NCBI GenBank assembly: GCA_051294375.1 | Contig: CM119269.1 | Span: forward strand, 19,567,936 to 19,631,935 | Source: Paraspadella gotoi | Taxonomy: Eukaryota; Animalia; Chaetognatha | Length of the DNA: 64,000 nucleotides | Reading direction: 5' to 3' | Shown: one piece after another, positions 25,168 through 64,000 of the stretch | Layout: each line of letters opens with the position of its first letter | Numbering within the stretch: position 1 is the stretch's first letter | Made by a program: the position numbers and the translations under genes | The notes under the pieces: generated by a model | What the model was told of the DNA's origin: nothing | What the model saw: only the letters and a program-made list of their open reading frames with translations | The model's database searches: none

Positions 25168-25582
25168 TGAATTTGGTACAACCAATATAAAAATTATCCA
25201 TTCATCTAATAAATAAGCTATCTTGCCATTGACTTTGGACAGGCTTTGGTGGTTTAAGGCCTCCATCTCTCTTACAAGATAATAACATAGCAGGTCCCTG
25301 CAAGCTTTCAATCAAGACTCTCTCACAGTCTCGTTTATTCACCCCCAGAGTACTTGGCTTCCCTATCAATGAAGTGGTATAATATTTCAAAGAATGTTTC
25401 AATTGTATGAAAAGACCACTCCCTTATGTATTAGATCGGGGAATACTTATTGTACTCCGCACTAGCATCAAAATACAAAGAGCTGAATTTTATGAAATTG
25501 GTACAAACAATATAAAAATTATCCAATCATTTAATAAATAAGCTATCTTAACTCTGACTTTTGACAGGCTTTGGTGGTTTAT
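25168..25582 (-). mobile_element. Penelope-like element 3' relic (GIY-YIG C-terminus) with directly repeated end
   Basis: Minus frames give SGLF..KHSL/YHFIDRE/LGVNKRDCERVLIESL...KRDGGL, fitting the PLE endonuclease tail H..H.IDW...R..ES....NRD.G. An ~85-bp direct repeat lies at 25170-25256 and 25496-25581. Confidence 0.55.
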
Positions 25583-25967: not shown

Positions 25968-26610
25968 TCCCTCCTTATCTTTCTCATTTCTTCACTGCAA
26001 CATACGTATTTTTAAAATGTTTTTCGTAAGGATTCAGATTAGAATAAAACTTAGGTATCTAAAAAAATTACTTAGAGCAACTAGACAAGACAAGCATAAT
26101 TTTAGTAGTGTACAATTCCCAGTTCTCTTAATAATTCTTACATACAGCTGTCTATCAGAAAAGAGAAATTACTGCGAGATATTCGGATCTGATCTCTCAC
26201 AGTTTGACGATACTCACTGACAGGGAAGTTTTTTTTTGTTGATGTCGGAAGCATTACATAATTTTTTCGAAATAAATAATCTTTTCATTGTTTTATTTCT
26301 TTAGCTGTTTCTTCATTTCTTGCTTTCTTCTAAACTTTCTTTCTTTCTTTCTTTTTTCTAGCCTTGTTGAAGATCCTCCTCTCACGCCCTTTCTACAATT
26401 TACCTTGCCATTCTTTCTCTTAAGGTTTTTTGCTGATTTTATTTTTCTTTTCTTTTCACCTTTTACCCTCATTCCTTCTCTCTCTCTCTTATCACTCACC
26501 CATTTGTTCTTTCATTGTGATTAATCCTTTTTTTACCGACGACGACGACGTCATCGTAACTTTTATCTTCGTTGTCGTCATTATAATCGTCATGAAATTG
26601 TATAACCATC

Positions 26611-26693
26611 TTATGGAATTGGTACAACAATAATAAAAATTATCCATTCATTTAATAAATAAGCTATCTTGCCGCTGACTTTGGACAGGCTTT
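26611..26693 (-). repeat. Third, isolated copy of the 25170-25256 repeat
   Basis: ttatggaattggtacaacaataataaaaattatccattcatttaataaataagctatcttgccgctgactttggacaggctttg is nearly identical to the two copies at 25.2-25.6 kb. Confidence 0.85.
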
Positions 26694-27587
26694 GATTTTG
26701 TTATCATCGTTGTCTTTAAGTTTATCTGAATCTTTGGCGCATTCTGCTATTTTAATTTTCTCAGTCTTAGTGTGATCAATTTGGATTTTCTCATTGTCAT
26801 CCATCCTCGTCGTCTTTATTCGTCGACTTCTTCTCCTTCGTCGTTTTCGTCTTCTTTTTCGTCGACTTCTTCGTTGTCGTCGTCGTCGTTGTCGTCGTCG
26901 TCGAGCCAAAAGGTCGACGCTTCTCAGGATTCGATTGAATTCTCTCTTTTCGTCTTTTTGTCTCCTTCACTTTTTTTCCTTTGTCTCCCACTGCTTTTGA
27001 CTTTTGTCCTTTTATAATCTTCGTAGTCTCGATTCTAGACTATCTGTGTGAATCTGTCGGAATGTCCTCACGCTCTACTCACAGAACACATAAAGCAGAT
27101 ATCGAAATTGCCATTTTAATTCTTCAGTTGATTGGCCCGATTTTATTTTAATCTTTAATTCTACAGGGTTTTTCTTTTCTTTCCTCCATTTCTTTTCCTC
27201 CTCTCCTTTCCTCCGTTTGTCTTTTTGTTCTCGTCAGTTTTGTCTTTTTTTTGAGTTATTTCCCGTTTGTTTACACAAACCCGAGGAGAAAAGCGTGATT
27301 CATGCCGAGTTCATGTCACTGTTCAAAAACAAAAAAAAAGCGTATTCGTCTTCAACGTCGACGTTGTGTTCGTCGTTGTTTTGTTCGTCGTCGTTGTCAT
27401 CGTGGTAATCTTCGTTGTCATCGTTGTCATCGTCATGGAGGTCTTTGTCGTCGTTGTCTTTGTCCTCGTGACTATGTAAAGAGTCGTGAAATAAAAACGT
27501 ACGTAGGTTCCATTATTGTCTACGTTATTGTGAGGTCAAGGAAGGTCTTTCTGTCATTTTCAGCTTCTGTATTGTCAGAAAGAGAGA

Positions 27588-29454: not shown

Positions 29455-30470
29455 AAATTGAGGAAGACGTTTCCAACAGTGGTCAGGGCAGTGGTGAAGG
29501 ACACAGCTGAAGGTGAGGAGAGGGAAGAAGTAAGTTTGTTTTAAAGTTTTAATTAATTTTAATGGGCACTTTATCTCTTGTGTACTATTAAGGCGTAGTA
29601 ATATTTCTAAAATATAACTTTAAATTAAAAATTCTAAAAGTGAGAATGAACACATTATAATCTAATGAACAATTTATATAATAAAAAAAATTGTATAGTA
29701 AATTTTACAATTTACAGCAGTAGGCATATTTAATAGTACTAAACCATAAATGTTAAAATTTCAAAACAGTTTTTTTCTTAGATTTTTTTTATGCAGATTT
29801 GGATTTGCGTCATAAAAAGTGATAAAAAGAAAGATAATTCTTTTTAAAAATTCTTTCATTAAGTGGTCAAAAATTAAGAAAAAGCCTATATTTAAAGCCT
29901 GAAAATTAACTTTTTATATATTAAATATATTTTTTTAAATTTGTTAAACCACTTAATGAAACAACAATTTTAAAAAAAATGATTTATATGAAAATTTGCA
30001 AATTATTGTTTCACTATTTTGTTTATTTTTATATTTTATGAAGGATTTTATTTCTTTTATAAAAACTTTTTGCGAGGGAATTCTAATCTTGTAATCAAAT
30101 ATTAAGAAAAGCCTATTTTGAAAATTTTTTTCAAGATTTATAAGGATAGTACTATATATAAATATAGCTTACTGCGAAATTAAAAAGCGATAAAATATTT
30201 TTTTTTACAAATTTTAATGTTCACTGATGGCTAGTGTTTGTTCATAATTGATTTTTAGAATTTTCATATGGTACTTTCTGCAGCCTACGGCCTTATTGTA
30301 CATTGGCTAATATGTATTGTTTAATTTTTTGCTCTCACACTCTCCTCTCTCTCTCTCTCCACTCTCTATTTAAGTTTTTCACAAACTTACTTCTTCCCTC
30401 TCCTGCACCTTCAGCTGTCCTCACATTCCCGGAACCACTGTCCTTATTCTATTGTGGAAATCTCTCAATT
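29455..30470. repeat. Inverted-repeat pair (~29455-29545 / ~30370-30470) enclosing the MITE
   Basis: cagctgaaggtgaggagagggaagaagtaagtttgt matches the reverse complement acaaacttacttcttccctctcctgcaccttcagctg. Confidence 0.8.
29592..30292. mobile_element. AT-rich foldback MITE, copy 1
   Basis: TTAA|GGCGTAG...CTACGGCC|TTAT ends, internal palindromy (cattaagtggt/accacttaatg; gcagtaggcatatt/aatatagcttactgc), and similarity to 46016-46643. Confidence 0.75.
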
Positions 30471-46015: not shown

Positions 46016-46643
46016 AGCATAGTAAAAAATTATTATTTAACTTTTTGATTAATTAATTTAATTAAAATTATAAAAGTGAGGAACCGAACAACCATTATAA
46101 TCTAATGAACAATTTCTGTATGAAAATGTATTTAAATTTTACAATTGCTCGGCTAGGCTTATTTATACATAGTACTAATCAATAAATGGTAAAAATTTCA
46201 AAAATAAGTTTTTGTAAGATTTTTTTTTGCTGATTTAGATTCATCATGAAAACTTGATGATTAAGAAAAATATAGACTCTTTTTTAAAATTGATGTCATT
46301 AAATGGTCAAATATGCAAGCAGAAAAACCTATATTTTAGCTAAATTTTAGCATGTTAAATATAGTTTTTTATAATGTTTTAACGGCTACTTAATGAAAAG
46401 AATTTTTAAATGAATTATATTTACTTTTATCAACTTTTGACACGAAATTCAAAATCTGCAATCAAAAATTGAAGAAAAGCCTATTGTTGAAATTTTTGAT
46501 TTTATAAGGATGGTACTATATATAAATATAGCCTTACTGCGAAAATAAAACTATAATTTTTTTTTTTACAAACATGTTACTAAAATATAAGAATGTTTCA
46601 TGATTGATTTTAGATTTTTCGTAACGTTAACTTTCACTACGCT
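46016..46643. mobile_element. AT-rich foldback MITE, copy 2
   Basis: AGCATAGTAAAA...TTTCACTACGCT TIRs; shares blocks (cattataatctaatgaacaattt; gtactatatataaatatagc) with 29592-30292. Confidence 0.8.
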
Positions 46644-47903: not shown

Positions 47904-50900
47904 TCTACAGACACCAATGAAAGAAGAAAGGATTATAAACACATGGATGTTTATCATAGTACATTCATATTCATATTCATGATGCAAGTTCTAAAATAAA
48001 GGCGTAATCGGTAATATAAAAAAAAGTTTAACATATTTTTATTTTTAAGGTGGTCCACTATTAAAGAGTCACGTGATCAAATTACATGGCCAGAAAAAGC
48101 AAACACTTGAGCTTGCCGGTTCTTGATTCATTGGTAGTAGATTAATATTTTTCTTTTCAGTGCGAAAGAGTGAAAGAGCGATTAATTGGTGCTGCAATGA
48201 AAGTCTTGGTCCCCTCAAACAATGCAGGGAAAAAATATAACAGAATTGTGACTAATGGAATTAAAAGGTATTGAAATACTGGAATATTCTAAAATGAGAA
48301 AATTATGTTTATTGACAAGAATCTTTTATTTTATCAAGGAGCATAAAAATCATTGTGTTGTTACTTACTGGAAGATCATCGACTGCAGGACCCAAAGTTT
48401 TTTGTGGAGGAGATTAAGAATATGCTGGCAGCTGTAACTTTTATGTTATCAAAATATCCTAATCTCTTCTCAAGAGGATATTTCAAAAAAACAATCAAGT
48501 TAAATATTGCTAGCAGATGCCAGAAAATTATTGTTTTTAAAAATGGTAATTATTTCTTAGTAATAAAGCTTTGGTGATTTTTGTATGCTTCTCTCGCAAT
48601 GCTCGGAAGCATAAAATTAATGAGATTACTCCATGTTGACTTACAAAAATTTTGAGTGCGCCTGAGGAGTATAACGCGTTTAACTAGTAGCTCATGCAGG
48701 AATGACGCCTAATTTTTTTTTAAAATCTGATGAAATAAAAATTCTTTGTAAAGAAAAAAAAAACTTTTTTGAAGGTCTCAAGTTTTAATGCGTATTTCTT
48801 AGCTTAACCGTCTAAAGAAGATAAGAATGACCCTGATCCAAAGTCTGAAAGTTATTATTCCGAAATTTGATCATTGACCTTTAAGTTCTCGTCGAAAAGA
48901 TAACTATAAATTACTTTAAAACAGATTTTTAAGAGGCATTGGTGCTATGGCTGAGTTCCTATGAAGCCCTTAAAATCTTTCTCGTTAGAAGATCGTGGTT
49001 TTCCTTACCGAGATACGACGAAAGACGCGACCAGAGAGAAAAAAAATAACCATAAAAGTTAGTTTTTTCTTCTTCTTTTTTTTTAAATTTAGGGATTTCA
49101 CGACGAAAGAATTAGCGACTTGGGAATATTAGCGTTTTAGCTGCAAAGTTCAGCTCCACAGAAAGGTATAAACATTGGAACGATGTTAAGCAGGAGAGAA
49201 AATTATATTATTTTTCTTTTAAATTTGTTTTTTGCGTGCAAAGATAGTTTAAAATATGACAGCTTGACATTTCCGGATGTTTGTTGTTACAATTGGCCGA
49301 AAGTGAATGTTAAACGTTTCCTATTTCAGTGCCTCTCTTGCTCTCTCTCTGCTGTCTCTCTCTCTCTGTCTCTCCGTTCATCTCTTCTCGTTCTCTTCTC
49401 GCTCTCTTCTCTGCTCTCTCTCTCTCTCGAACCGCTCCAGTCACATACATTTGCCCCCCCCTCTTCACCTCCCTCGTCTCTGAATCTCGTATCAGGATTT
49501 ATCAGATCGCTTTCCCTTAAATATTCTTTTCTATTTCGTTAATTCGATAACCCCCAAAAGAAAAAGGAGAAAAAAGAAGGGAAAGAAAAAAAGAAAAAAA
49601 ATCGACCGGGCGGACGAAATGGATTCTTATTTTCTGCCTCCTTTTTTGGGCGCTCAGAAAACCGCGGTATCGAGAGATCGAGAGAGAGAGCAGATGTGAG
49701 AGAATGAGAGGAAAGCAAAGGAAAGAAGATGAGTAGGTAATGATAAAGAGAAGGAAGAGAGAGAGAGTAATTGATGAGAAGAGAGAGTAAATGAGTCTAA
49801 AAGATGAACCGAAGTATGATGAAAGTAAATGAAGCGTGCATGCGCATAGAACCATACAGGGCATAAGAATTCTCCTAAGCTTTTCCAGGCCATCACGTAC
49901 TCGCCTTACACAACAATAGATTGAAAAAAAGATGTGGATGACTGTCTGCGTAAAGTAGTGGATACAGTACTTGTTTTGATATTAAAAATATACTCTTCTG
50001 TTTTTAGTTGCAACTAACGAGTTAAGAATTACTTAGTTTGGATATGGCAGAGGATTACATTCACGCTAGCGGAAAGACTCTTTTCGATCCCTTAAGCGTC
50101 GGCAAATGACCACGAGGTACAAGTCGTCTATGCTAATCTCAAAACAATGATGAAACAATGAGTAAATAATGTTAAGGAAAAGCGATCATGGACAAAAACG
50201 TAATAACGACAACCTTGGCTAAGGACCAAACTGGCCGAATTCGATTCGCTGGCAAAGTGCGATGCAGCGTCTTGGTGACGCTGCGTGGCGGCTACTGTCT
50301 TTGGCCGCTGGGCTTCTCTGCTTCTGACAACTGATCGTACTCGGTCCTCGGTCCGAGATAAACGGAGAAAGTGAGAGAAAGGCAGAGTGACCCGAGCGAG
50401 GCAAAAGGAGGACAGGGCCCTCTTCTTCTCTCTTCGTCTGCCGGCTGAGACGAAGATTACGCGCCTTTCTGCCTCACTATCTTTTTTTTATTTCTGCTCT
50501 TCTTTCTTTCTTCTTCTTTTTCTCCTTCATTTCCTTCCTTCCTTCCTTTCCGTTCCTCTTGTTCATTCATGTCATTCGAACATTCATTCATTCATTCCTG
50601 GACATCCATTATCTCTTCCTGCCATTCCTTCTTCCTTCCGTTCCCTTCTCTTCTCCTTCCGTTCTATTCCTTATTCTCATTATCATTCACATCATCATTA
50701 TTCTCTCATTCATTATTATTCATTAATTCATTCACTCCTTCTTTCTTCCTTCTTTCCGCTTCCTTTACTTTTTTTTCTTTCCTTTCCTTTCCTTTCCTTT
50801 GCCTTTCCTTTCCTTTCCTTTCACTTTCGCTTTCCTTTCTTTCCTTTCGTTTCCATTTCCTTCCATTTCCTTCTAAACATTTATTCCGCTTTCCCTATTT

Positions 50901-51247
50901 TCTCACTTCTTTAATTATTTTATATAAGATTATTTTCTACTCGTCCCATTCCTAACAAGTCTAAGGATAGTAAAGGAATAATTTTGATAAGGAATTGTTA
51001 TTACAAGAAGTTAAATTGCAGAAAATTTTACAATAACTATTTATGCTGCCAATGGATAGAAAGATTACAAAAAGGAAAATTAACAATTATTCATTATAGT
51101 TTTCACCGAATAAGAAATTATTCAGCCTCAAGATACTCTTTGTTTGCTTCGTTTAAGTAAATTTTCCATTTTCACTTAATTAGCAGCAATCGCATCACAT
51201 TCGCAAATCCGGTCATAATTATTTTTACGAGTCTAGAATTGGTTCCG

Positions 51248-54200
51248 CTAGACCCACCCGCTCCCCCTCTTCTTGCCCTTGGCCATCGTCTTGTGCAACG
51301 ATTAAAGCGTTCGTCGCAACTGTTAAACAAACGGGAGAGAGTTTCGTTAGCTCAAGCGTTTTGTTCAAGGTTTCAATCGTTAAAGGCACAAACGACTTGT
51401 ATAAAATTAAATGTTAACCTTCAAAATATTTATTTCACTCGGCGGTTCACTTCCACGCGTCATTTTACCTTCCGATCGTCGAAGCATTTCGCGCCTTGGG
51501 AGATTTTTCGGCGCCCTGATGGACCTTTTTTTCTTTTCGAGGGTCTTTGCATTTCGCCGTCTTTCCCGGCATTTGGTAGTTTTCAGAGCACGAACGAAAG
51601 AGACGATATGGACGCCTGTGAGGCTTGGGACGGCTTTTGGTGCATGCTCCGAGTGTCGCATGGGGCGTCTATCGGTTTTTCCAATCAAAAAGAAGCATGT
51701 TGTTATCTTTTTTTGATCTTTTTTATCGTTTTTAACATCAGAATAAATGTCACTAAGTCTATCGAGCACTGGGTCGATTCTCCTCTATCTCTCCCCTCAA
51801 GAAATTGCCCGCACTGCACCCCGTAATCACCCCCCGAGAAAAGGTTCTCGGCCCGCGAACCCTTCTCTTCTTCCGCGCGGCGGAGGAGGCGGCATCTGTC
51901 GAACGATTGTCCGTTCTTTGTCGTTGTCCATCGTCGTCCTTTCCTTCGGCGGTCAGACACAAAACGTCGTCGTTGTTTTTGATCATCAGATTCCTTCGAC
52001 GGACCCTTGAGCAGCAATTAAACTTTGCGGCAGAACAGCAGCAAGAGCTAACGGCGAGTTGTCTGATCAAATGCTAAACGAACCTTCACTGCGACTCCTT
52101 GGAAGTTTCCGTCACTTTTTCGATTCTTGCAACGAAGCGCGATGATGACTGTCGACGATGACGAGACGGCAACTTGGGATTCTGAGGAGAAATTTTCGGT
52201 TCATATCACGAGAAATTGTCAGAAGAAACTGAGGAGCGGCCTCCGAATACATCAATCCCAACACTGCTTTGCAAGCTGAGCGCGATACAAAGTTGGATAG
52301 ACTTACCCCGCCCTTAACTGACCTTAACTCTATTTCTTGTTTATGTGTGTGACAGAACTGTTGGTTTGTTGACGATGGAGCGTGGAGTCTGAACCCATCG
52401 AGGATTCACCTTCTGCAGATTTTTCGGTTCAGTGAAGGGGCAGTCTGGAGCGGCTGCTCTCGGTCGACGGGAGGCAAGTGTCTCCACTGGAGCCTGAAAG
52501 AGCAGTTTCATTCGATGAGGCTGAGTCGACGGAGGTTACGATTGCAAGTTCGGCTGGCTGGGTTGCAGGAGGTGTGGTGCACTGGAGGCTGGCTCTCGCT
52601 CTCGCTTCTCGTGCATATGAGGTCGCTTATTTGTTTAACTGTTGAGGTGTTGATAAGAACGGGTCGCGCGGCTTATTTGTCAACAGAGACGTCTTCTGGC
52701 GTTGGTAACTGTTATGCCCCGCTCTTCCTTTTGGAATGCGACTGATTATTCGTCCTTGTTGACAACTGGCTGGTTTTCTTTGTCGGGTTGTCTCTGCTAG
52801 TCGAACTGTGGATTGCCTGTGGATTCTGTTGATTTTTTTTTCTGATTTTCCGACCGGGTTGGGCTGCTGATTGTCCGCGCTCTGAATCGCCTCGTGTCGT
52901 CGTCTGTTTGGGTGCATTGACTGGCGATGCCTCCTCGCGTCCTTTTTGCGTTTTTCCGAACTTCGAAAGAAAAAAACGTACAAAATTTTAATCGCCAATT
53001 TAATTCTAGTCGATTAACCTACGTTAGAGAAATATAAGTGATGAGCAAAAGTAACAGAAGCTTCGAGGCTGGGCATCGTCTGCTTACTCTGGGCATAGAA
53101 GGCGGTTTGATTGGCTCAAGCAAAGCTCATCGACATTGCCTTGCTCCAAATGTCTCTGTCGCGCTTGATCTGACGAAAAAAAATCATATCGTTAAATATT
53201 CATGGTGTAAAAAATGATAGATTAATTATTTATTGTTGCAAGTATTTTTACTCAGATCGAAGGCCGCTTGTGTTCGACTAAGTTGGGGATGTCCGGCAGA
53301 GCTGAGATTGGCGTCTGGCCGCGATCAAACTCATTAGAAGACGCGGTCTTCCAAATATGCAGCGTGACATGGTATAAAGTAGATAGGTATTGTATATGTC
53401 CTAAAACTAAAGACAAATACACATGAAATGTACGTGAGTTGAATATAATCTATGGAGGACTAAAGATCCACACAGGAAGTCACGTTCATGTGCAGCGGCA
53501 TTGGTGCCGGAGGGCAAGTCAGCTTCGCCTACCAACTCAAAGGTGCGCGGGAATTCTCACGAACCGGATGGGCCGCCTAGCAGTTAAGAGGGACGGGGCA
53601 ACTTAAACGCCGCGCTGTAACATGGTGTTACAGCTGATCCGAAGCTCAGGGACTGCTTAACTGAATGGTTTCTGTCACTAACCATAAGCCAATAATTACT
53701 GTCTCTTCAATTGTGACTCGACTTCGAACACAACAGCAGAGCAACAACATTTTCAGGGCATGCCTCAACCTGGCGATGGCACTTTCCGCCAAGGCCGATA
53801 ACAAATCAGGCGACATGCCTCAAACTTGGTGAAGCGCACTTCCACCAACAACTACAATTCACTGAAGAAATGCCTAAAACAGACTTCTGCGCTTCGTGGG
53901 AGGGGGGGTGTATGGTGAACTAAAATCCACCAACTGCGTTGATAGGCGGCGCTTAAGGTATGGGAGGCGTACGGCATGCAGCGACCATTGGTGCGCAGTG
54001 GCGCAAGTCATTCGCCCCCAACCCAGAAGGTTCGGGGTTCTACGCGCGGTGGCCGCTGAGCAGTTAAGAGGGACGTGGCGCTTGGACCGCCTGGAAACCA
54101 TGGTGTTACAGATGCCTGATCGCGAAAGCTCAGGGAGCTGCTTATTGAATGGTCCGTCACTAAACTCATAACAATAATGTACTGTCCTCTTCAAGAATCG

Positions 54201-54675
54201 AATAATCTAACCAACCTTTTGGCAGAACCAAATGGTGCTTGTTCACTGCGCGAAGAAATTTTGCCTGGCGACTATGATCTAACGAAGCGGTTAGACTGAC
54301 CCAGGAGACTATTCGACATTGCTTGGCTCCATATGTCTTGTTTGGATTGGCCTCGGAGGAATGAAAAATTTTAAAATGTATAAACTGAATTGTACGTCAC
54401 ATGTTATCTATATTATTTGTGAATATCACAATCATGTTGTCCTTGTAATGACCAGATTGCTGGTCGTCCGCCCTGATTTGGGCGACGGACGACGATGCTG
54501 CAACCGGACTGAGCCAATGAGACGTACATCGTCGATGCGTTCTCCTCAAAGGTCTGGATTTTTGGAAAGGAGAAGTATAATGAGACAAATTTACGCCCCA
54601 TCCAAGCTTTTGATTCAAAGGGTTCCAGAGCGGATCGTCACTGAATCGCGAATTCTATTGGTGGACCAGATTTTG
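51248..54675 (-). CDS. Copy 1 of the DxW-repeat gene (indel-corrupted, cut by a gap)
   Basis: Colinear with 57196-60410; many frameshifts. Confidence 0.6.
53495..53657 (+). ncRNA. tRNA-like head + twister ribozyme, copy A (indel-noisy)
   Basis: AGCAGTTAAGAGGGACGGGGCAACTTAA...CTGTAACATGGTGTTACAGCTGATCCGAAGCTCAGGGACTGCT; counterpart of 59329-59479. Confidence 0.7.
53981..54142 (+). ncRNA. tRNA-like head + twister ribozyme, copy B (indel-noisy)
   Basis: Counterpart of 59753-59902; A-box-like TGGTGCGCAGTGG is visible. Confidence 0.6.
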
Positions 54676-54700: not shown

Positions 54701-54833
54701 TGATATTAAGAAATATAACTCTTTTTTAAAAATTATGTCATTAAATTGGTCAAATATCAGAAAAACCTATATTTTAAGCTAAAATTTTACATGTTAAATA
54801 TAGTTTTTATTAATTTTTAACCTACTTAATGAA
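54701..54833. mobile_element. Foldback MITE fragment between gaps (duplicate of ~46255-46397)
   Basis: Matches the centre of MITE copy 2. Confidence 0.8.
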
Positions 54834-57195
54834 NNNNNNNNNNNNNNNNNNNNNNNNNNNNNNNNNNNNNNNNNNNNNNNNNNNNNNNNNNNNNNNNNNN
54901 NNNNNNNNNNNNNNNNNNNNNNNNNNNNNNNNNNNNNNNNNNNNNNNNNNNNNNNNNNNNNNNNNNNNNNNNNNNNNNNNNNNNNNNNNNNNNNNNNNNN
55001 NNNNNNNNNNNNNNNNNNNNNNNNNNNNNNNNNNNNNNNNNNNNNNNNNNNNNNNNNNNNNNNNNNNNNNNNNNNNNNNNNNNNNNNNNNNNNNNNNNNN
55101 NNNNNNNNNNNNNNNNNNNNNNNNNNNNNNNNNNNNNNNNNNNNNNNNNNNNNNNNNNNNNNNNNNNNNNNNNNNNNNNNNNNNNNNNNNNNNNNNNNNN
55201 NNNNTTTTTTTTCTAATTAGATCATATTCGAAAACCAAACTATCGATGTCGTTAAAATCTTTCTCGTTAAAATCGTGGTTTTCTTAACGAGATACGCGAA
55301 GACGCGACCAGAAGAAAAAAATAACCATAAAAAGTTAGTTTTTTTTTCTTCTTTTTTTTAAATTTAGGATTTCACGACGAAGAAATTAGCGACTTGGGAA
55401 TAATTAGCGTTTTAGCTCAAAGTCTCAGCTCCACAGAAAGGTATAAACATTGGAACGATGTTAAGCAGGAGAGAAAATATTTATGTATTTTTCTTTTTTA
55501 AATTTGTTTTTCGGCCAAAGATTTTAAAATATGACAGCTTGAACATGTNNNNNNNNNNNNNNNNNNNNNNNNNNNNNNNNNNNNNNNNNNNNNNNNNNNN
55601 NNNNNNNNGAAGAGATCGACGAAGAGAGCAGAGAGGAGAGGGTCTGAGAGACCCATCTGAAATAGAAGGACAAGTCAAACGGTTAACAGTTCTCGACTTT
55701 CGCCATGTGTGATAACAAACACCCGGTACAAAAAAATCGACGGCGGACGAAATGGATCTTTTTTCTCCTCTTTTTTGGGCGAAACCGATATCGAGGATCG
55801 AGAGAGAGAGAGAGGAGAGAGACGAGCAGCACGACGACAGAGAGAGAGAGAGAGAGAGATCTGATCCGGTGACGTCTCGAGGAACATCAGGGCAAGAATT
55901 TTAAGACTTTTCCGGCATCACGTTCCCTCACAAAATAGTATTAAAAAAGATGTCGGATGGTGTCTGCGTAAAATGTAATACTAAGTACTTGTTTGATATT
56001 AAAAATATATCTTTTTTTCAATGAAGAGTTTAGAAATTACTTAGTTTATATTGGCAGAGGATTACATTCACGCAGCTGAAAGACTCTTTTCGATCCTTAG
56101 CGTCGGCAAATGACCACGAGGTACAAAGTCGTCTATGGCCAATCTTCAAAACAATGATAAACAATGATAAAAATGTTAAGGAAAAGCGATATGGACAAAA
56201 CGTATTAACCGACAACCTTGGCTAAGGACAAAACGAATCGGCAAAGGACGTCAGCTCGGGACAAAGCGCGTCGGCTAACCTTGTCGGGCGCGGGCCTCGT
56301 CTTCCAACCTTCGCCTACTCGGGTCCTCGGGTCGCGAAGATAAGCGGAGAAGGAAGAGAAAGGCAGAAGTGGAGGGCAAAAGGAGCGACAGCCTCCTTCT
56401 CCTCCTCTTCGTCTCCGGACTGAGACAAATTGCGACGCCTTTCTGCCCTCACATCTTTTTTTTTATTTCTGCTCCTTCTTTTCTTTCTTTTCTTCCTTCC
56501 TTCCTTCCTTCCTTCTTCCTTCTTCCTTCCTTCCTTCCTTCCTTCCTTCCTTCATCATTCATCGGACATCATTCATTCTATTCTGGTCATTCTTTTTTTC
56601 CCAAATCACATGGTCCTTCCCTTCCTTCTTCCTTCTTTCCTTCCTTCAATTTATTTCCTTCATTCACTGCATTCATTCATTTATTCATTAATTCATTCAC
56701 TCCTTCCTTTCTTCCTTCCTTTCTTCCTTCCTTTACTTTTTTTTCTTTCCTTTCCTTTCCTTTCCTTTCCTTTCCTTTCCTTTCCTTTCCTTTCCTTTCC
56801 TTTACATTTCCTTTCGTTTCCTTTCCTTTACATTTCCTTTCCTAAACATTTATTCGCTTCCTATTTCTCACTTCTTTAATTATTTTATATAATTATTTTC
56901 TACTCGTCTCCATTCCTAACAAGTCTAAGGATAGTAAAGGAATAATTGATAAGAATTGTTATTACAAAAGTTACAATCAGAAATTTACATACATATTTTC
57001 ATCTGCAAATGATAAAAGATTAAAAAGGATAACAATTATTCATTATAGTTTCACCGAAATAAGAAATTATCAGCCTCAAGATACTCTTTGTTTGCTTCGT
57101 TTAAGTAAATTTTCCAATTTTCACTTAATTAGCAGCAATCGCATCACATTCGCAAAATCCGTCATAATTATTTTACGGAGTCTAGAATGGTTCCG

Positions 57196-60100
57196 CTAGA
57201 CTCCACCCGCTCCCCCTCTTCTTCCCTTGGCCATCGTCTTTGCACGATAAAGCGTTCGTCGCAACTGTTAAACAAACGGGAGAGAGTTCGTTAGCTCAAG
57301 CGTTTTGTTCAAGAGTTCAATCGTTAAAGGGCGACAAACGACTTGATAAAATAAAATGTTAACCCTTCAAAATATTTATTTCACTCGCGTTCACTTCCAC
57401 GCGTCATTTTACCTTCCCGATCGTCGAAGCATTTCCGGCCTTGGGAGATTTTTCGGCCCTGATGACCTTTTTTTCTTTCGAGGTCTTTGCATTCGCCGTC
57501 TTTCCGGCATTTGTAGTTTCAGAAGCGACGAAAGAGGACGATATGGACGCCTGTGACGCTTGGGACGCTTTGGTCATGCTCCGAGTTCGCATGGGCTCTA
57601 TCGTTTTTCCAAAAAAAAGAAGCAATGTTTTATCTTTTTTGATCATTTTTTATCGTTTTTAACATCAGAATAAAATTGTCACTAGTCTATCGAGCACAGG
57701 GTCGATTCTCCCTATCTCTCCCCTAGAAATTGCCCCACCACCCCGTAATCACCCCCGAGAAAAGGTCTCGGCCCGCGAACCCTTCTCTTCCGCGTCGGCG
57801 GAGGAGGCGGCATCTTCGAACGATTGTCGTCTTTGTCGTTGTCATCGTCGTCCTTTTCCTTCGGCGTCAGACACAAAACGTCGTCGTTGTTTTGATCATC
57901 AGATTCCTTCGACGGACCCTTGAGCAGCAATACAACTTTGCGGCAGAAACAGCAGCAAGAGCAACGGCGAGTTGTCTGATCAAAGCTAAACGAACCTCAC
58001 TCGACTCCTTTGGGGTTTCCGTCACTTTTTTCGATTCGTCAACCGAAGGCGATGATGACGTCGACGATGACGAAGACGGCACTTGGATTCTGAGGAGAAA
58101 TTTTCGGTTCATATCACCGACGAATTGTCAGAAGAAACTGAGGAGCGGCCTCCGATTCAAATCCCACATCTTTTCAAAGCTGAGCCGATACAAAAGTTGG
58201 GATAGACTTACCCGCCCTAACTGACCTTACTCTATTTTCTTTTTGTTTCACAGAAGTTGGTTGTTTGACGATGGAGCGTGGAGTCTGACCCATCGAGGAT
58301 TCGACCTTCTGCAGTTTTTCCGGTTCAGTGAGCAGCTCGGACGGCTGCTCGGTCGACGGAGGCAAGTTCTCCACTGGAGCCTGAAGAGCAGTTTCATTCG
58401 ATAGCTGAGTCGACGGAGGGTTAGATTGCAGGTTCGGCTGCTGGGTTGCAAGCTGGGGTGATGGAGGCTGCTTGTTCGTCTGCTCAGAGGGCTTATTTGT
58501 TAACTGTTGATTTGATAAACGGGTCGCGGGCTTATTTGTCAACAGAGACGTCTTCTGCGTTGGTAACTGGATCCCCTGCTTCTTTTGAATCGACTGATTA
58601 TTCGCCTTGTTGACAACTGGCTGGTTTTCTTGTCGGGTTGTCTCTCTAGTCGACCTGTGGATTGCCTGTGGAGTTGCCTGTTGATTTTTTTTCTGATTTT
58701 CCGACCGGGTTGCCTGCTGATTTCCCCTCTGAATCGCCCCGTTCGTCGTCTGTTTGGTCATTGACTGCGATGCCTCCTCGCTCCTTTTTCGTTTTCGAAC
58801 TTTCGAAGAAAAAAAACGTACAAAAATTTTAATCCCATTTAATTCCTAGTCGATTAACCCTACGTTAGAAAAATAAAGTGATGAGCAAAAGTAACAGAAG
58901 CTTCGAGCTGGGCATCGTCTGCTTACTCTGCATAGAAGCGTTTGATTGGCTCAGCAAGCTCATCGACATTGCCTTGCTCCAAATGTCTCTGTCGCCTTGA
59001 TCTGACGAAAAAAAAAATCATATCGTTAAATATTTTCATGGTGTAAAAAATGATAGATTAATTTATTTATTGTTCAAGTCATTTTTACTCAGAATCGAAA
59101 GGCCGCTTGTTGTTCGACTAAGTTGGGATGTCGGCAACGGATCTGAGATTGGCGTCTGCCCGATCAAACTCATGGAAGACGCGGTCTTCCAAATATCAGC
59201 TGACATGGTATTAAAGCTAGATAGTATGACATGTCTAAAACTAAAGACAAATACACATGAAAGTACGTGAGTGAATATAAAATATATGGTGGACTAAAAT
59301 CCAACTACAAATCGCGTTTGCATTTCAAGCGGCCATTGGTGCCGGAGCAAGTCATTTCGCTCTCCCAACTCAAAGGTCCGGGGTTCTAGACGCGTGGCCG
59401 CCTAGCAGTTAAGAGGGACGGGGCACTTAACCCGCCTGTAACATGGTGTTACAGCCTGATCCGAAGCTCAGGGACTGCTTATACTGAAATGGTTCTGTCA
59501 CTAACTCATAACAATAATTACTGTCTCTTCATTGGTGAAACTCGACTTCCGAACACAACAGCAACAACAACATTTTCAGGCGACATGCCTCAACCTGGCG
59601 ATGCACTTTCCGCCAAACAACAAATCAGGCGACATGCCTCAACTTGGTGACGCACTTTCCACCAACAACTACAATTCACTGAAGAATGCACAGACTTCTC
59701 CTTCGGGGAGGGGGGATGTATGGTGAACTAAAATCCACCAACCGTTCATCCAGCGACCATGTGTGCCGGAGGCAAGTCATTCGCCTCCCAACCCAAAGGT
59801 CCGGGGTTCTAGCCCGGTGGCCGCCTAGCAGTTAAGAGGGACGGGGCGCTTAACCGCCTGTAAACATGGTGTTACAGCCTGATCCGAATCTCAGGGACTG
59901 CTTATATTGAATGGTTCGTCACTAACTCATAATCAATAAATTACTGTCTCTTCAAATCGAATAATCTAATCCAAACCTTTTGGCAGAAACAAATTGCTGT
60001 TCATCCGAAGCAATTTCCTGGGCGGACTCTGATCTATCGAAGCGGTAGACTGACCCAGGAGACTCATCGACATTGCTTGGCTCCATATGTCCTTGTTGGA

Positions 60101-60446
60101 TTGGCCTCGAGGAATGAAAAATTTTAAATGTAATAAACGTGAATTTGTACGTACATTATACATATTATTTGTGAAATATCACAATCATTTGTCACTTGTA
60201 ATGGACCAATTGCTGGTCGTCCGCCTGATTTGGGCGACGGACGACGATGCTGCAACGGACTGACCAATGAGACTCATCGTCGATGCCGTTCTCCAAAGGT
60301 CTGGATTTGGGAAGGAGAAAGTATAATGAGACAAAAATTACCCATCCAAGCTTTTGATTCAAAGGGTTCCAAGCGGATCTCACTGAATCCGAATTTATGT
60401 GACCAGATTTGATTTTATCTACCTAATCCGACCTGCGTCTGATTAC
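57196..60446 (-). CDS. Multi-exon gene of unknown function with 4 DxWxxAxxMSLxxQ repeats and a Q/N/T/S-rich, basic (nuclear-like) C-terminal part
   Basis: GT-AG exons 60300-60196, 60105-59977, 59199-59089 and 59001-58927 (all phase 1-1; 105/129/111/75 nt), 58799-~58230 (RKRKRSEEASQSM...), ~58178-57681, 57597-57413 and 57264-57196 (stop). The 5' end is not defined. Confidence 0.75.
59329..59402 (+). tRNA. tRNA-Gly(CCC)-derived head (pseudo-tRNA), unit C
   Basis: Acceptor stem GCGGCCA/TGGCCGC, A-box-like TGGTGCCGGAG, anticodon loop CTCCCAA, B-box-like GGTTCTAG; the anticodon stem is imperfect. Confidence 0.65.
59404..59479 (+). ncRNA. Twister ribozyme, type-P5 permutation, unit C
   Basis: P5 AGCAGT/ACTGCT; P2 GG/CC; GA + T1' CGG pairing with L4 CCG; P1 GGCACT; U^AA cleavage motif at 59428/9; T2 GC(59434-5)/GC(59466-7); P3 TGTAACA/TGTTACA; P4 CCTGA/TCAGG with loop TCCGAAGC. 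Confidence 0.85.
59753..59825 (+). tRNA. tRNA-Gly(CCC)-derived head, unit D
   Basis: GCGACCA...TTCGCCTCCCAA...CCGGGGTTCTAGCCCGG-TGGCCGC. Confidence 0.65.
59827..59902 (+). ncRNA. Twister ribozyme, unit D (L4 AAGC>AATC weakens T2)
   Basis: Same fold as unit C; P1 GGCGCT is palindromic with G-U ends; U^A at 59851/2. Confidence 0.75.
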
Positions 60447-62084: not shown

Positions 62085-63019
62085 GAAGAGAGAGATAGGC
62101 AGACAGCAGACACACAGACGACAGACTTACACAAAGACAGAGAGAGACACAGACAGACAAAAAAAAATATACGTTTTATTCCGCGAAGCAAAAGTTATTG
62201 CATTTGGTAATTGGATAGTCCTTGCAGAAGCGAAAATCTATTTCTAAGAAAAGAGTCTGATGAGAGAAAGAAATGGAGATAGACAGTGCGAGGGAGAGGG
62301 AGAGATTTTTCTATGGAGAAGCCTGGAAAAGGTTCATTCATTCCGCTTTTCATTTCCCTCTAATTTCTTTCTCGTTTTTTTTCGCTTCATATATTTTTTT
62401 TTGTATTTATATTTTCCTGTTTTTCTTCTTTTTTTTTCAGTCCCCGCCATTTACAGCGCCTTTTTCTTCCTCTTATTTCTTTTCTATTTTTTTTTTCCTT
62501 TTTCTTTTCTGTTGCCTTCTCTCTTTCAGTTTCATTTTCTCGGCTAATTGAATTTTTCAGTGTTTCCTGTTCCTCCTGTTCCTTCTTGATCATCCGCCTT
62601 ATCCTCGTCCTCCTCCTTCTCCTCGTCCTCCTCGTCCTCCTCCTCCTCCTCCTCCTCCGATTCTTTTTCTTTCTCTTTCCCTCTACTTCCCCTTCTTTTT
62701 TTCCTTCCTTTTCCCCAGAGTTCTCTTTAATTTTCTTTAATCCTTTTCCCGCTGGGCTTCCCCACTCTGCCTTACCTGTTCCTCGCTACTTACTTTTGAC
62801 CATTTACTTTCTTCTCTCTCGATTTATCCGATCCTCACTCTTTTCCTCCTTCATTCCTCCCCTTTTCTTCCCCTCTTCTCCCTTCGATTGACTCAAGGAG
62901 AAAAATTATCGCTTTCGTCGACGTAATGACTTCAATTCCGTCGAATCTCATCCTCTTCCTCCTCGCTGCTCCGCCCCTCCTCCGGCCCCCACTCCCCTTT
63001 TCGTCTTTTGTCTTTCTTC

Positions 63020-64000
63020 CCCACCCTCTCTTTATACCTAGCTTTTTCCGCCCCCTTTCTCCTTCCTTCAACTCCAACGCGCCCCTCCTTTTCTCTTTTC
63101 TTCTCTCCCACCTCTCTTTATCCTACTTATTTTCCCCACCTTTCTCCTTTGCCTTCAACTCCATACGCGCCCCCCTCCTTTCTCTTTTTCTTCTTTCTTC
63201 CCACTTCTTTATCCTCATCTATATTTCCCCACCCTTTCTTCCTTCTTCAACTCCAACCGCCCCGCCTCCTTTTCTCTTTTTCTTCTCTTCTCCACCTCTC
63301 TTATCCTACTTATTTCCACGCCTTTCTCCTTTTTCAACTGCCAACCGCCCCCTCCTTTTCTCTTTTTCTTCTCTTCCCACCTCTCTTTATCCTACTTATT
63401 TCCCACCCTTTCTCCTTCTTCAACTCCAACCGCCCCCCTCCTTTCTCTTTTTCTTCTCTTGCCCACCTCCTTCTTTATCCTACTTATTTCCCCACCCTTT
63501 TCCTTTCTTCAACTCCAACGCCCCCACTCCCTTTTCTCTTTTTTCTTCATCTCCCACCTCTCTTTATCCTACTTGTTTTCCCCACCTTTTCTCCTTCCTT
63601 CAACTCCAAACCGCCCCCGCTCTTTTCTCTTTTTCTCTCTCCACCTCTCTTTATCCTACTTGTTTTCCCCCCCTTTCTCCTTCTTCAACTCCACGCGCCC
63701 CCCTCCTTTTCTCTTTTTCTTCTCTCCCACCTTCTTTATCCTAACTTTTTTCCCCACCCTTTCTCCTTTCTTCAACTCCAACCGCCCCCCTCCTTTTCTC
63801 TTTTTCTTCTCTTCCCACCTCTCTTTGTTATCCTACTTGTTTCCCCACCCTTTCTCCTTCCTTCAACTCCAACCGCCCCCCTCCTTTTGCCTCTTTCTTC
63901 TCTTCCCAACGCTACTCTTATCCTATGCTTGTTCCCCACCGCTTCTCCCTTTCTCAGACTCAACACCGCGCCCCTCCTTTCTTCTCTTTTTTCTCTTCCC
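63020..64000. repeat. Pyrimidine-rich ~88-bp satellite, ~11 units, running off the window end
   Basis: caactccaaccgccccc...cccacctctctttatcctacttatttccc recurs every ~86-97 bp. Confidence 0.9.

Follow-up and report, generated by a model that had tools for sequence, protein, structure and literature searches.

A multicopy chaetognath element with tRNA-like segments and type-P5 twister-like motifs in its terminal repeats: a possible twister-based retrozyme

Introduction

The window considered here comprises 64,000 nucleotides of the chaetognath Paraspadella gotoi (assembly GCA_051294375.1, contig CM119269.1, positions 19,567,936 to 19,631,935). Within it, an intron of a host gene holds a 670-bp element in antisense, in which two direct repeats of ~240 bp surround a 187-bp interior (Table 1). 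An earlier note on this DNA had described a 423-nt tandem unit and filed it as a short interspersed nuclear element (SINE) or a tandem retrozyme without long terminal repeats (LTRs). Two copies and predicted cuts 423 nt apart were indeed found; the unit itself gives way to the two repeats and their interior, and the order LTR, primer-binding site (PBS), interior, polypurine tract (PPT), LTR overturns the filing. What stands is that the element is mobile, present in many copies and likely transcribed by RNA polymerase III (Pol III) from a segment of probable tRNA origin, and that its type-P5 twister-like motifs would, if cut as predicted, set free an RNA of 423 nt.

Judged by its anatomy, the element is very probably a non-autonomous LTR retrotransposon of the TRIM kind (terminal-repeat retrotransposon in miniature). 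The most likely further reading, held with a confidence slightly short of even, is a Pol III-transcribed, twister-based LTR retrozyme, with cleavage and circles as predictions only.

Anatomy and copies of the element

The two LTRs align with 220 matches, 12 mismatches and 15 gap openings, and the 670 bp contain no open reading frame (ORF) of at least 120 amino acids. One base past the end of LTR1 lies a PBS with the letters TGGTGA...CGAC. These correspond to the first seven and the last four letters of the 14-nt tRNA-Trp PBS in Fig. S2 of the paper on Helenus elements (PMC10886601), where the reference is that of Gypsy-32_NVi and Helenus-2_SyJa rather than the host's own tRNA-Trp. Most family copies match this PBS at 13 of 14 letters, according to variant tables of run contigs. 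By way of background, the share of window positions at which CA is followed by TGG is 0.2%, and 0.01–0.04% of positions are preceded by a G-rich run of 12 purines.

These family data come from contigs, rather than raw reads, of seven out of thirteen listed public runs, aligned to the locus (X1, X2 and X9 to X13, with X10 and X11 from other organisms, B and C). None of the listed runs is recorded as RNA. Expression cannot be read from summed contig depth, and RNA contigs cannot reveal cut sites or circles. In X1, 14,079 contigs align on 59150–60100, with a summed depth of 2–4 million in the LTR core, 0.4–1 million in the interior and ~240 in the flanks. The contrast between core and flanks suggests thousands of copies, summed depth being no copy count. 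The interior is itself multicopy in X1 and X9, and the first letter of the PPT deviates in about half of the X1 depth. The left flank is confirmed by an X1 contig that matches 59150–59303 without a difference. At 59531, 171 contigs of X1, 188 of X2 and 46–51 of X9 leave the element for unrelated AT-rich sequence. At the other end, 11 X9 contigs enter at 59719 with loose ends before it, and across loose ends and joints the 5′ end recurs at 59716–59719. The element thus belongs to a family of many copies that share one fixed 3′ end. Two X1 contigs contain a 422-nt back-join, so longer tandems exist.

Outside these runs little was found: X12 and X13 gave no aligned contigs, X10 and X11 gave two each, both pairs outside the ribozyme core and hence without cross-species covariation, and none of the 28 matches to a 17-nt core stretch in a metagenome scan extended into the element.

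Two rival classifications are weighed on this anatomy. In the first, the element would be a SINE with a tRNA head, arranged in tandem arrays like SM-alpha and carrying a twister in place of the hammerhead; the position of the tRNA-like segment directly 5′ of the ribozyme and the SM-alpha precedent (PMC6765202) speak for it. The repeat, however, starts 44 nt upstream of the tRNA-like segment and has neither an A-rich nor a simple tail after its terminal CA, and a PBS and a PPT occupy the junctions, so that the LTR anatomy largely refutes this view and leaves it very improbable. The second would derive the element, as a non-autonomous form, from a Penelope-like (Naiad-type) element or a non-LTR retrozyme, with pseudo-LTRs from a partial tandem insertion. 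It draws on the 422-nt back-join, on the imperfect target duplication and on a non-autonomous Chlamys element that had at one time been misclassified as an LTR element (PMC8557442). It is improbable: PBS and PPT lie right at the junctions, one at each, the 5′ end is found repeatedly at 59716–59719 whereas Naiad copies are described as often 5′-truncated (PMC8557442), and tandem arrays are also known for the Helenus family LTR-11_DR (PMC10886601).

Table 1. Features of the element and its surroundings (window coordinates)
Feature	Position	Strand	Remarks
Whole element			670 bp: 247 + 187 + 236 (LTR1 + interior + LTR2)
Left target-site duplication, candidate	59281..59284	+	AATA; 3 of 4 letters as on the right side
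LTR1	59285..59531	+	247 bp, TATGG...CTTCA; 5′ end possibly 2 nt further left
Degenerate tRNA-like segment of LTR1	59329..59402	+	74 nt; 7-bp acceptor stem
Type-P5 twister-like motif of LTR1	59404..59479	+	76 nt
Blocks of LTR1 motif, 5′ part			P5 59404-10/59473-79; P2′ 59415-16; GA 59417-18; T1′ CGG 59419-21
P1 region of LTR1	59422..59427	+	GGCACU; departs from the palindrome at 59425
Blocks of LTR1 motif, 3′ part			U^AA 59428-30; P2 59431-33; GC 59434-35; P3 59436-54; P4 59455-59/59468-72; L4 59460-67
Interior	59532..59718	+	187 bp, non-coding; 49-bp internal duplication at 59576-59669
Primer-binding site	59533..59546	+	tRNA-Trp type; 1 nt after LTR1
Polypurine tract	59705..59716	+	GGGGAGGGGGGA; 10 G of 12; then TG, then LTR2
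LTR2	59719..59954	+	236 bp, also TATGG...CTTCA
tRNA-like segment of LTR2	59753-59825	+	
Twister-like motif of LTR2	59827-59902	+	Palindromic P1 GGCGCU 59845-50; predicted cut 59851/59852
Right target-site duplication, candidate	59955..59958	+	AATC
Host-gene intron holding the element in antisense	59200..59976	-	777 nt, GT-AG
Second reading of the same element	53451..54192	+	Inside redundant unpolished locus copy 49857-54673

The tRNA-like segment

The tRNA-like segment of LTR1 includes a B-box-like GGTTCTAG at 59382 with a GGTTC box, which in Helenus is the conserved part of the B box (PMC10886601), and a weak A box near 59337. The twister-like motif begins 2 nt past it, as the earlier note had observed of its cloverleaf. 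The tRNA-Gly cloverleaf itself fares less well, since the segment is degenerate and the glycine label traces solely to a CCC loop in LTR2. ARAGORN called no tRNA at its default setting or at threshold 90; at threshold 80 it called both copies, among 27 sites in the window, and Rfam returned no tRNA match in the element at E ≤ 10. At best, then, the sequence points to a degenerate tRNA derivative, as in Helenus. It is likely that the LTR holds a tRNA-derived Pol III promoter. The sole T4 run of the element (at 59573) is absent from 99.6% of the X1 depth, an absence that alone is not significant.

A type-P5 twister-like motif

With blocks laid out as in Table 1 of PMC8501958, the motif of LTR1 reads P5-AAG-P2′-GA-CGG-(6 nt)-UAA-CCC-GC-P3(8 bp)-P4(5 bp)-UCCGAAGC-P4′-P5′(7 bp). 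All core letters (U^AA, GC, U...AAGC and GA) and both pseudoknots (CGG/CCG and GC/GC) are present, in agreement with the original claim of a complete core in type-P5 order. The predicted cuts fall at U59428/A59429 and U59851/A59852, 423 nt apart. Cleavage by a twister leaves a 5′-OH and a 2′,3′-cyclic phosphate.

A generic type-P5 descriptor, written with knowledge of the candidate and permitting a short P2 and no P1, matched this site alone in the 64-kb window. It produced five matches in 82 Mb of window shuffles and three among 288,962 LTR shuffles, and it recovered 10 of 10 Rfam-confirmed phage P5 twisters. One of the four LTR readings in the window matches: two misses belong to a noisy duplicate of the locus, described at the end, and LTR2 fails because one loop letter, the G at 59889, is missing in the assembly; 96% of the X1 depth carries it.

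The CCG/CGG form of the T1 pseudoknot, read from the outset as a compensatory variant, has counterparts elsewhere. A viral scan for the CCG type yielded 24 loci, and 8 of 15 tested match the Rfam model RF03160 with E values from 1e-11 to 2e-7; phage type-P1 twisters bear the same UCCGAAGC/GACGG pseudoknot. On these sequence matches, CCG/CGG is a natural twister variant. A viral contig scan with the exact layout of the LTR motif gave no match.

Two side observations concern phage twisters. The RF03160 matches of the CCG/CGG type-P1 twisters in viral contigs (L029–L051) all lie under the gathering score (67.2 bits) and therefore escape Rfam scans at default settings. At locus L204:27-79 lies a candidate phage twister of type P1 whose P2 measures 3 bp; it scores 33.5 bits against RF03160 (E 4.5e-5).

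Within the family, variants of at least 3% occur at 8 of 51 tail positions against 3 of 77 motif positions, of which two lie at the apex of P3 (Fisher p 0.026); the count omits 59425 in the motif and 59484 and 59506 in the tail, because there this copy deviates from the rest. Most family copies keep the core letters, the two pseudoknots, three perfect stems and a palindrome in the P1 region all together. The motif may well be an active twister, and we lean towards that view.

A palindromic P1 and a predicted double twister

The intramolecular P1 proposed at first does not exist. Folded on themselves, the six letters that separate T1′ from U^AA would leave a loop of just 2 nt, so no P1 can form within one motif. 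In LTR2 these letters are the palindrome GGCGCU, with a self-duplex of -8.3 kcal/mol; the GGCACU of LTR1 reaches -2.1 and recurs in the locus duplicate. The palindromic state, with G at 59425 as in LTR2, makes up 98% of the X2 depth and 99% of the X9 depth.

Since P1 is palindromic in most copies, the two LTR motifs of a transcript would form a nested double twister. P1 between two copies measures 6 bp, the fold is fully nested, and it is scored at -138.2 kcal/mol against -134.1 for two monomers. As each core in it combines the 5′ half of one LTR with the 3′ half of the other, the full two-LTR transcript would be required for efficient cutting. The twister P1 has been described as dispensable (PMC6154101) or variable (PMC8501958), and given the former report slow cleavage of the monomer is possible. 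The predicted double twister resembles the axolotl hammerheads with a palindromic tetraloop, which cleave well only as dimers (PMC7229834).

Proposed mechanism

Under the retrozyme reading, Pol III would start near 59329 and read through the interior into LTR2. P1 of LTR1 would then pair with P1 of LTR2, and the predicted double twister would cut at 59428/9 and 59851/2 to give a 423-nt RNA. After two such cuts the ends share no redundant sequence, and the element must rely on either a circle or cutting biased to LTR2. A tRNA ligase could close the circle, by analogy with plant LTR retrozymes, for which a circle route is described (PMC4918200, PMC7761336). The circle would contain U5, PBS, interior, PPT and U3, and terminal redundancy would no longer be needed. 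tRNA-Trp would prime reverse transcription, and a Gypsy integrase would insert the copy with a 4-bp duplication. If the twister is active, the circle is probably the transposition intermediate. As a whole, the proposal of an LTR retrozyme beyond plants and the first one based on a twister, namely a Pol III-transcribed TRIM with an obligate double twister split across its LTRs and a 423-nt circle copied by a Gypsy reverse transcriptase, is a tentative one that we regard as possible.

Biased cutting is the core of a third rival. Here the element is a Helenus-type TRIM whose twister cuts mainly in LTR2 and replaces a Pol III terminator, without a circle: the transcript, a linear RNA spanning 59329–59851, would have a 100-nt repeat at its ends (tRNA and 5′ half of the ribozyme) and proceed by ordinary strand transfer. 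The LTR, PBS and PPT evidence is identical for both, most copies lack the T4 terminator, the predicted circle is poorly structured, and Cassandra transcripts are described to begin and end inside the LTR's RNA gene with short redundancy (PMC10886601). Yet both motifs consist of one and the same sequence in a symmetric double fold, so that neither cut is favoured; we consider this rival quite unlikely.

Evidence against the retrozyme reading

A set of results weighs against the retrozyme reading, first of all at the level of the motif. Rfam returned no twister for the element at gathering thresholds or at E ≤ 10, the truncated stretch for the P1 model included, and gave chance snoRNA hits alone; the covariance-model match that had been hoped for is thus missing. 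P2, announced as 2–3 bp, has 3 nt on its 5′ strand that form 2 bp and a C-A mismatch at the third position, compared with 4 in the phage twisters examined. A pattern with a 3-nt P2 gave 59 matches, of which one is twister-like. A custom covariance model was built from 12 phage P5 twisters (out of 14 loci passing a pairing filter and 120 fetched). The site was its best match in the window, though with a score of 11.6 bits and an E value of 0.37, and in another register; this register was rejected, as it is without the GC and has a mismatched pseudoknot. Rfam gave no hammerhead match in the element either.

Conservation and folding add further points. Per-position tables of this young family contain no compensatory change, and so the covariation anticipated among copies did not appear; no indel of at least 3% is listed at P2. 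G59463A breaks a pseudoknot pair in 11% of the X2 depth and 4% of the X9 depth, with no partner change listed. The Fisher test is weakened by the position of five of the eight tail variants in a trough of depth. P1, moreover, cannot form in one copy. The free minimum-energy fold is better than the active one by 6 kcal/mol for the monomer (-29.0 vs -23.0) and by 14 kcal/mol for the two-LTR transcript (-152.0 vs -138.2 for the active nested fold), pseudoknots being uncounted in each.

At the level of the element, the tRNA similarity lies below tool thresholds, no helper element was seen, and the target duplication, known from one locus, is imperfect in the polished copy (AATA/AATC); the noisy duplicate has AATC on both sides, with two extra letters on the right. 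The 3′ CA is fixed, while the LTR starts with TA rather than TG in the preferred register, and shifting its 5′ end 2 nt to the left restores TG but abolishes the duplication. The predicted 423-nt circle, folded on the noisy assembly, is 52% paired (z -0.54), whereas pairing above 70% has been reported for retrozyme RNAs (PMC4918200).

Many of these points feed a fourth rival, in which a Helenus-type TRIM carries a twister-like segment without cleavage activity, be it a captured relic or a structured RNA. The missing Rfam match and insignificant custom-model match, the short P2, the lack of P1 in one copy, the competing fold and the absence of covariation all suit it, and low variation may reflect merely a young family. 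Against it stands the joint retention, in most copies, of core letters, pseudoknots, three perfect stems and palindrome, so that we rate this alternative as unlikely, while giving it real weight.

Comparison with known systems

The closest relatives by anatomy are Helenus and TRIMp3 (Kojima 2024, PMC10886601), with which the element shares a length under 1 kb, a PPT, a PBS after a single T and the Trp primer of Helenus-2_SyJa, along with a probably tRNA-derived LTR segment with a GGTTC box and a candidate 4-bp duplication as in animal families. No ribozyme is described for Helenus, whereas the element has a 76-nt twister-like motif after its tRNA; 'twister' and 'self-cleav' have zero occurrences in the paper's text, and searches of its supplement with six short motifs showed no twister loop in an LTR, line breaks there being able to hide motifs. 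Homology to the listed Helenus families was examined by motif searches only.

Plant LTR retrozymes (Cervera et al. 2016, PMC4918200) are likewise non-coding, with a PBS and a PPT; they have a self-cleaving motif per LTR and a 4-bp duplication, where the element has predicted and candidate counterparts, and the RNA between the ribozymes is the predicted intermediate. They have type III hammerheads, a tRNA-Met PBS, LTRs of 300–400 bp and highly paired circles of ~700 nt, whereas here the motif is twister-like, the PBS of Trp type, a tRNA-like promoter lies in the LTR and the 423-nt RNA is not highly paired. As LTR retrozymes are described primarily as plant elements with type III hammerheads, and the present motif is twister-like with no hammerhead, the claim is that the element would work like an LTR retrozyme, not that it is one.

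Among ribozymes, the type-P5 twister model RF02684 (clan CL00120), a true P5-order model, shares the order P2′-GA-T1′-P1-UAA-P2-GC-P4-L4 and the core letters. It has an 8-bp P1 hairpin, a 4-bp P2 and no P3; the element differs in its 6-nt palindromic P1, 2-bp P2, simultaneous P3 and P5 and CCG/CGG T1, and does not match the model. Metazoan non-LTR retrozymes and SM-alpha also use a ribozyme-to-ribozyme unit of a few hundred nucleotides (PMC7229834, PMC6765202); the axolotl retrozyme further has a dimer-dependent ribozyme with a palindromic loop (PMC7229834), and SM-alpha a tRNA-derived Pol III promoter (PMC6765202), both as predicted here. They differ in having type I hammerheads and larger target duplications, without LTR, PBS or PPT (PMC7229834, PMC6765202). 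The twister variants of the Perere-3 RTE element (Liu et al. 2021, PMC8501958) resemble the motif in their weak or missing P1 and their place in a retrotransposon; they differ in following type-P1 order, and the element that carries them, which is autonomous and of the non-LTR kind, has a single ribozyme at its 5′ end, with a target-site P1.

The literature searched, which included few subscription papers, revealed neither a twister in any TRIM or LTR element nor a dimeric twister with a palindrome, and the supplements of bioRxiv 10.64898/2026.07.22.740005 may list further retrozyme families. The novelty once assigned to a tRNA head joined to a twister appears confined to the combination, a tRNA in the LTR being known from Helenus (PMC10886601). 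What appears new is the combination of two known kinds, a Helenus-like TRIM and an LTR retrozyme, with the ribozyme as a prediction only. If the motif cleaves, it would join Pol III TRIMs such as Helenus and Cassandra, for which the formation of RNA ends is unclear, with the hammerhead LTR retrozymes of plants. The retrozyme life cycle would then be independent of ribozyme class and of plants, and the eukaryotic type-P5 twister would gain a concrete job as well as a natural dimer-dependent form. If it does not, one more Helenus-like family remains.

The duplicate reading, the host gene and other features of the window

The copy of the locus at 49857–54673 aligns to 55888–60410 at 84% identity, dominated by 1-nt insertions: 107 mismatches stand against 431 gap openings, 297 of which are insertions in the copy. 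We take this indel profile to be PacBio-like, and the copy is most likely an unpolished long-read version of the same locus rather than an independent insertion. A reading of the four LTR copies as two insertions was rejected on the same profile. The assembly also has small errors inside the repeat.

The host gene runs on the minus strand at 58868–60337, with at least four short exons that repeat a motif like DIW(S/K)xAxSMSL(L/I)xQ; it matched no Pfam family, and a Pfam scan of 150 of the 204 filtered window ORFs gave no credible match. The splice joint 59199>59977, with CT..AC ends, is seen in one contig each of X9 and X10. Without the element and its duplication the intron would measure 103 nt. 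X9 has no cover at 59214–59245.

The window as a whole is eukaryotic DNA, rich in AG microsatellites and with gaps. A second interspersed repeat occupies 29620–30278 and 46057–46635, together with 54701–54833; its long inverted repeats resemble those of miniature inverted-repeat transposable elements, with self-matches at 46155–46534 and 29834–29983. A repeat of ~90 bp occurs three times at ~90% identity (25168–25256, 25487–25581 and 26608–26694), and at 62977–64000 a tandem array of pyrimidine-rich units of ~85–90 bp reaches past the end of the window.

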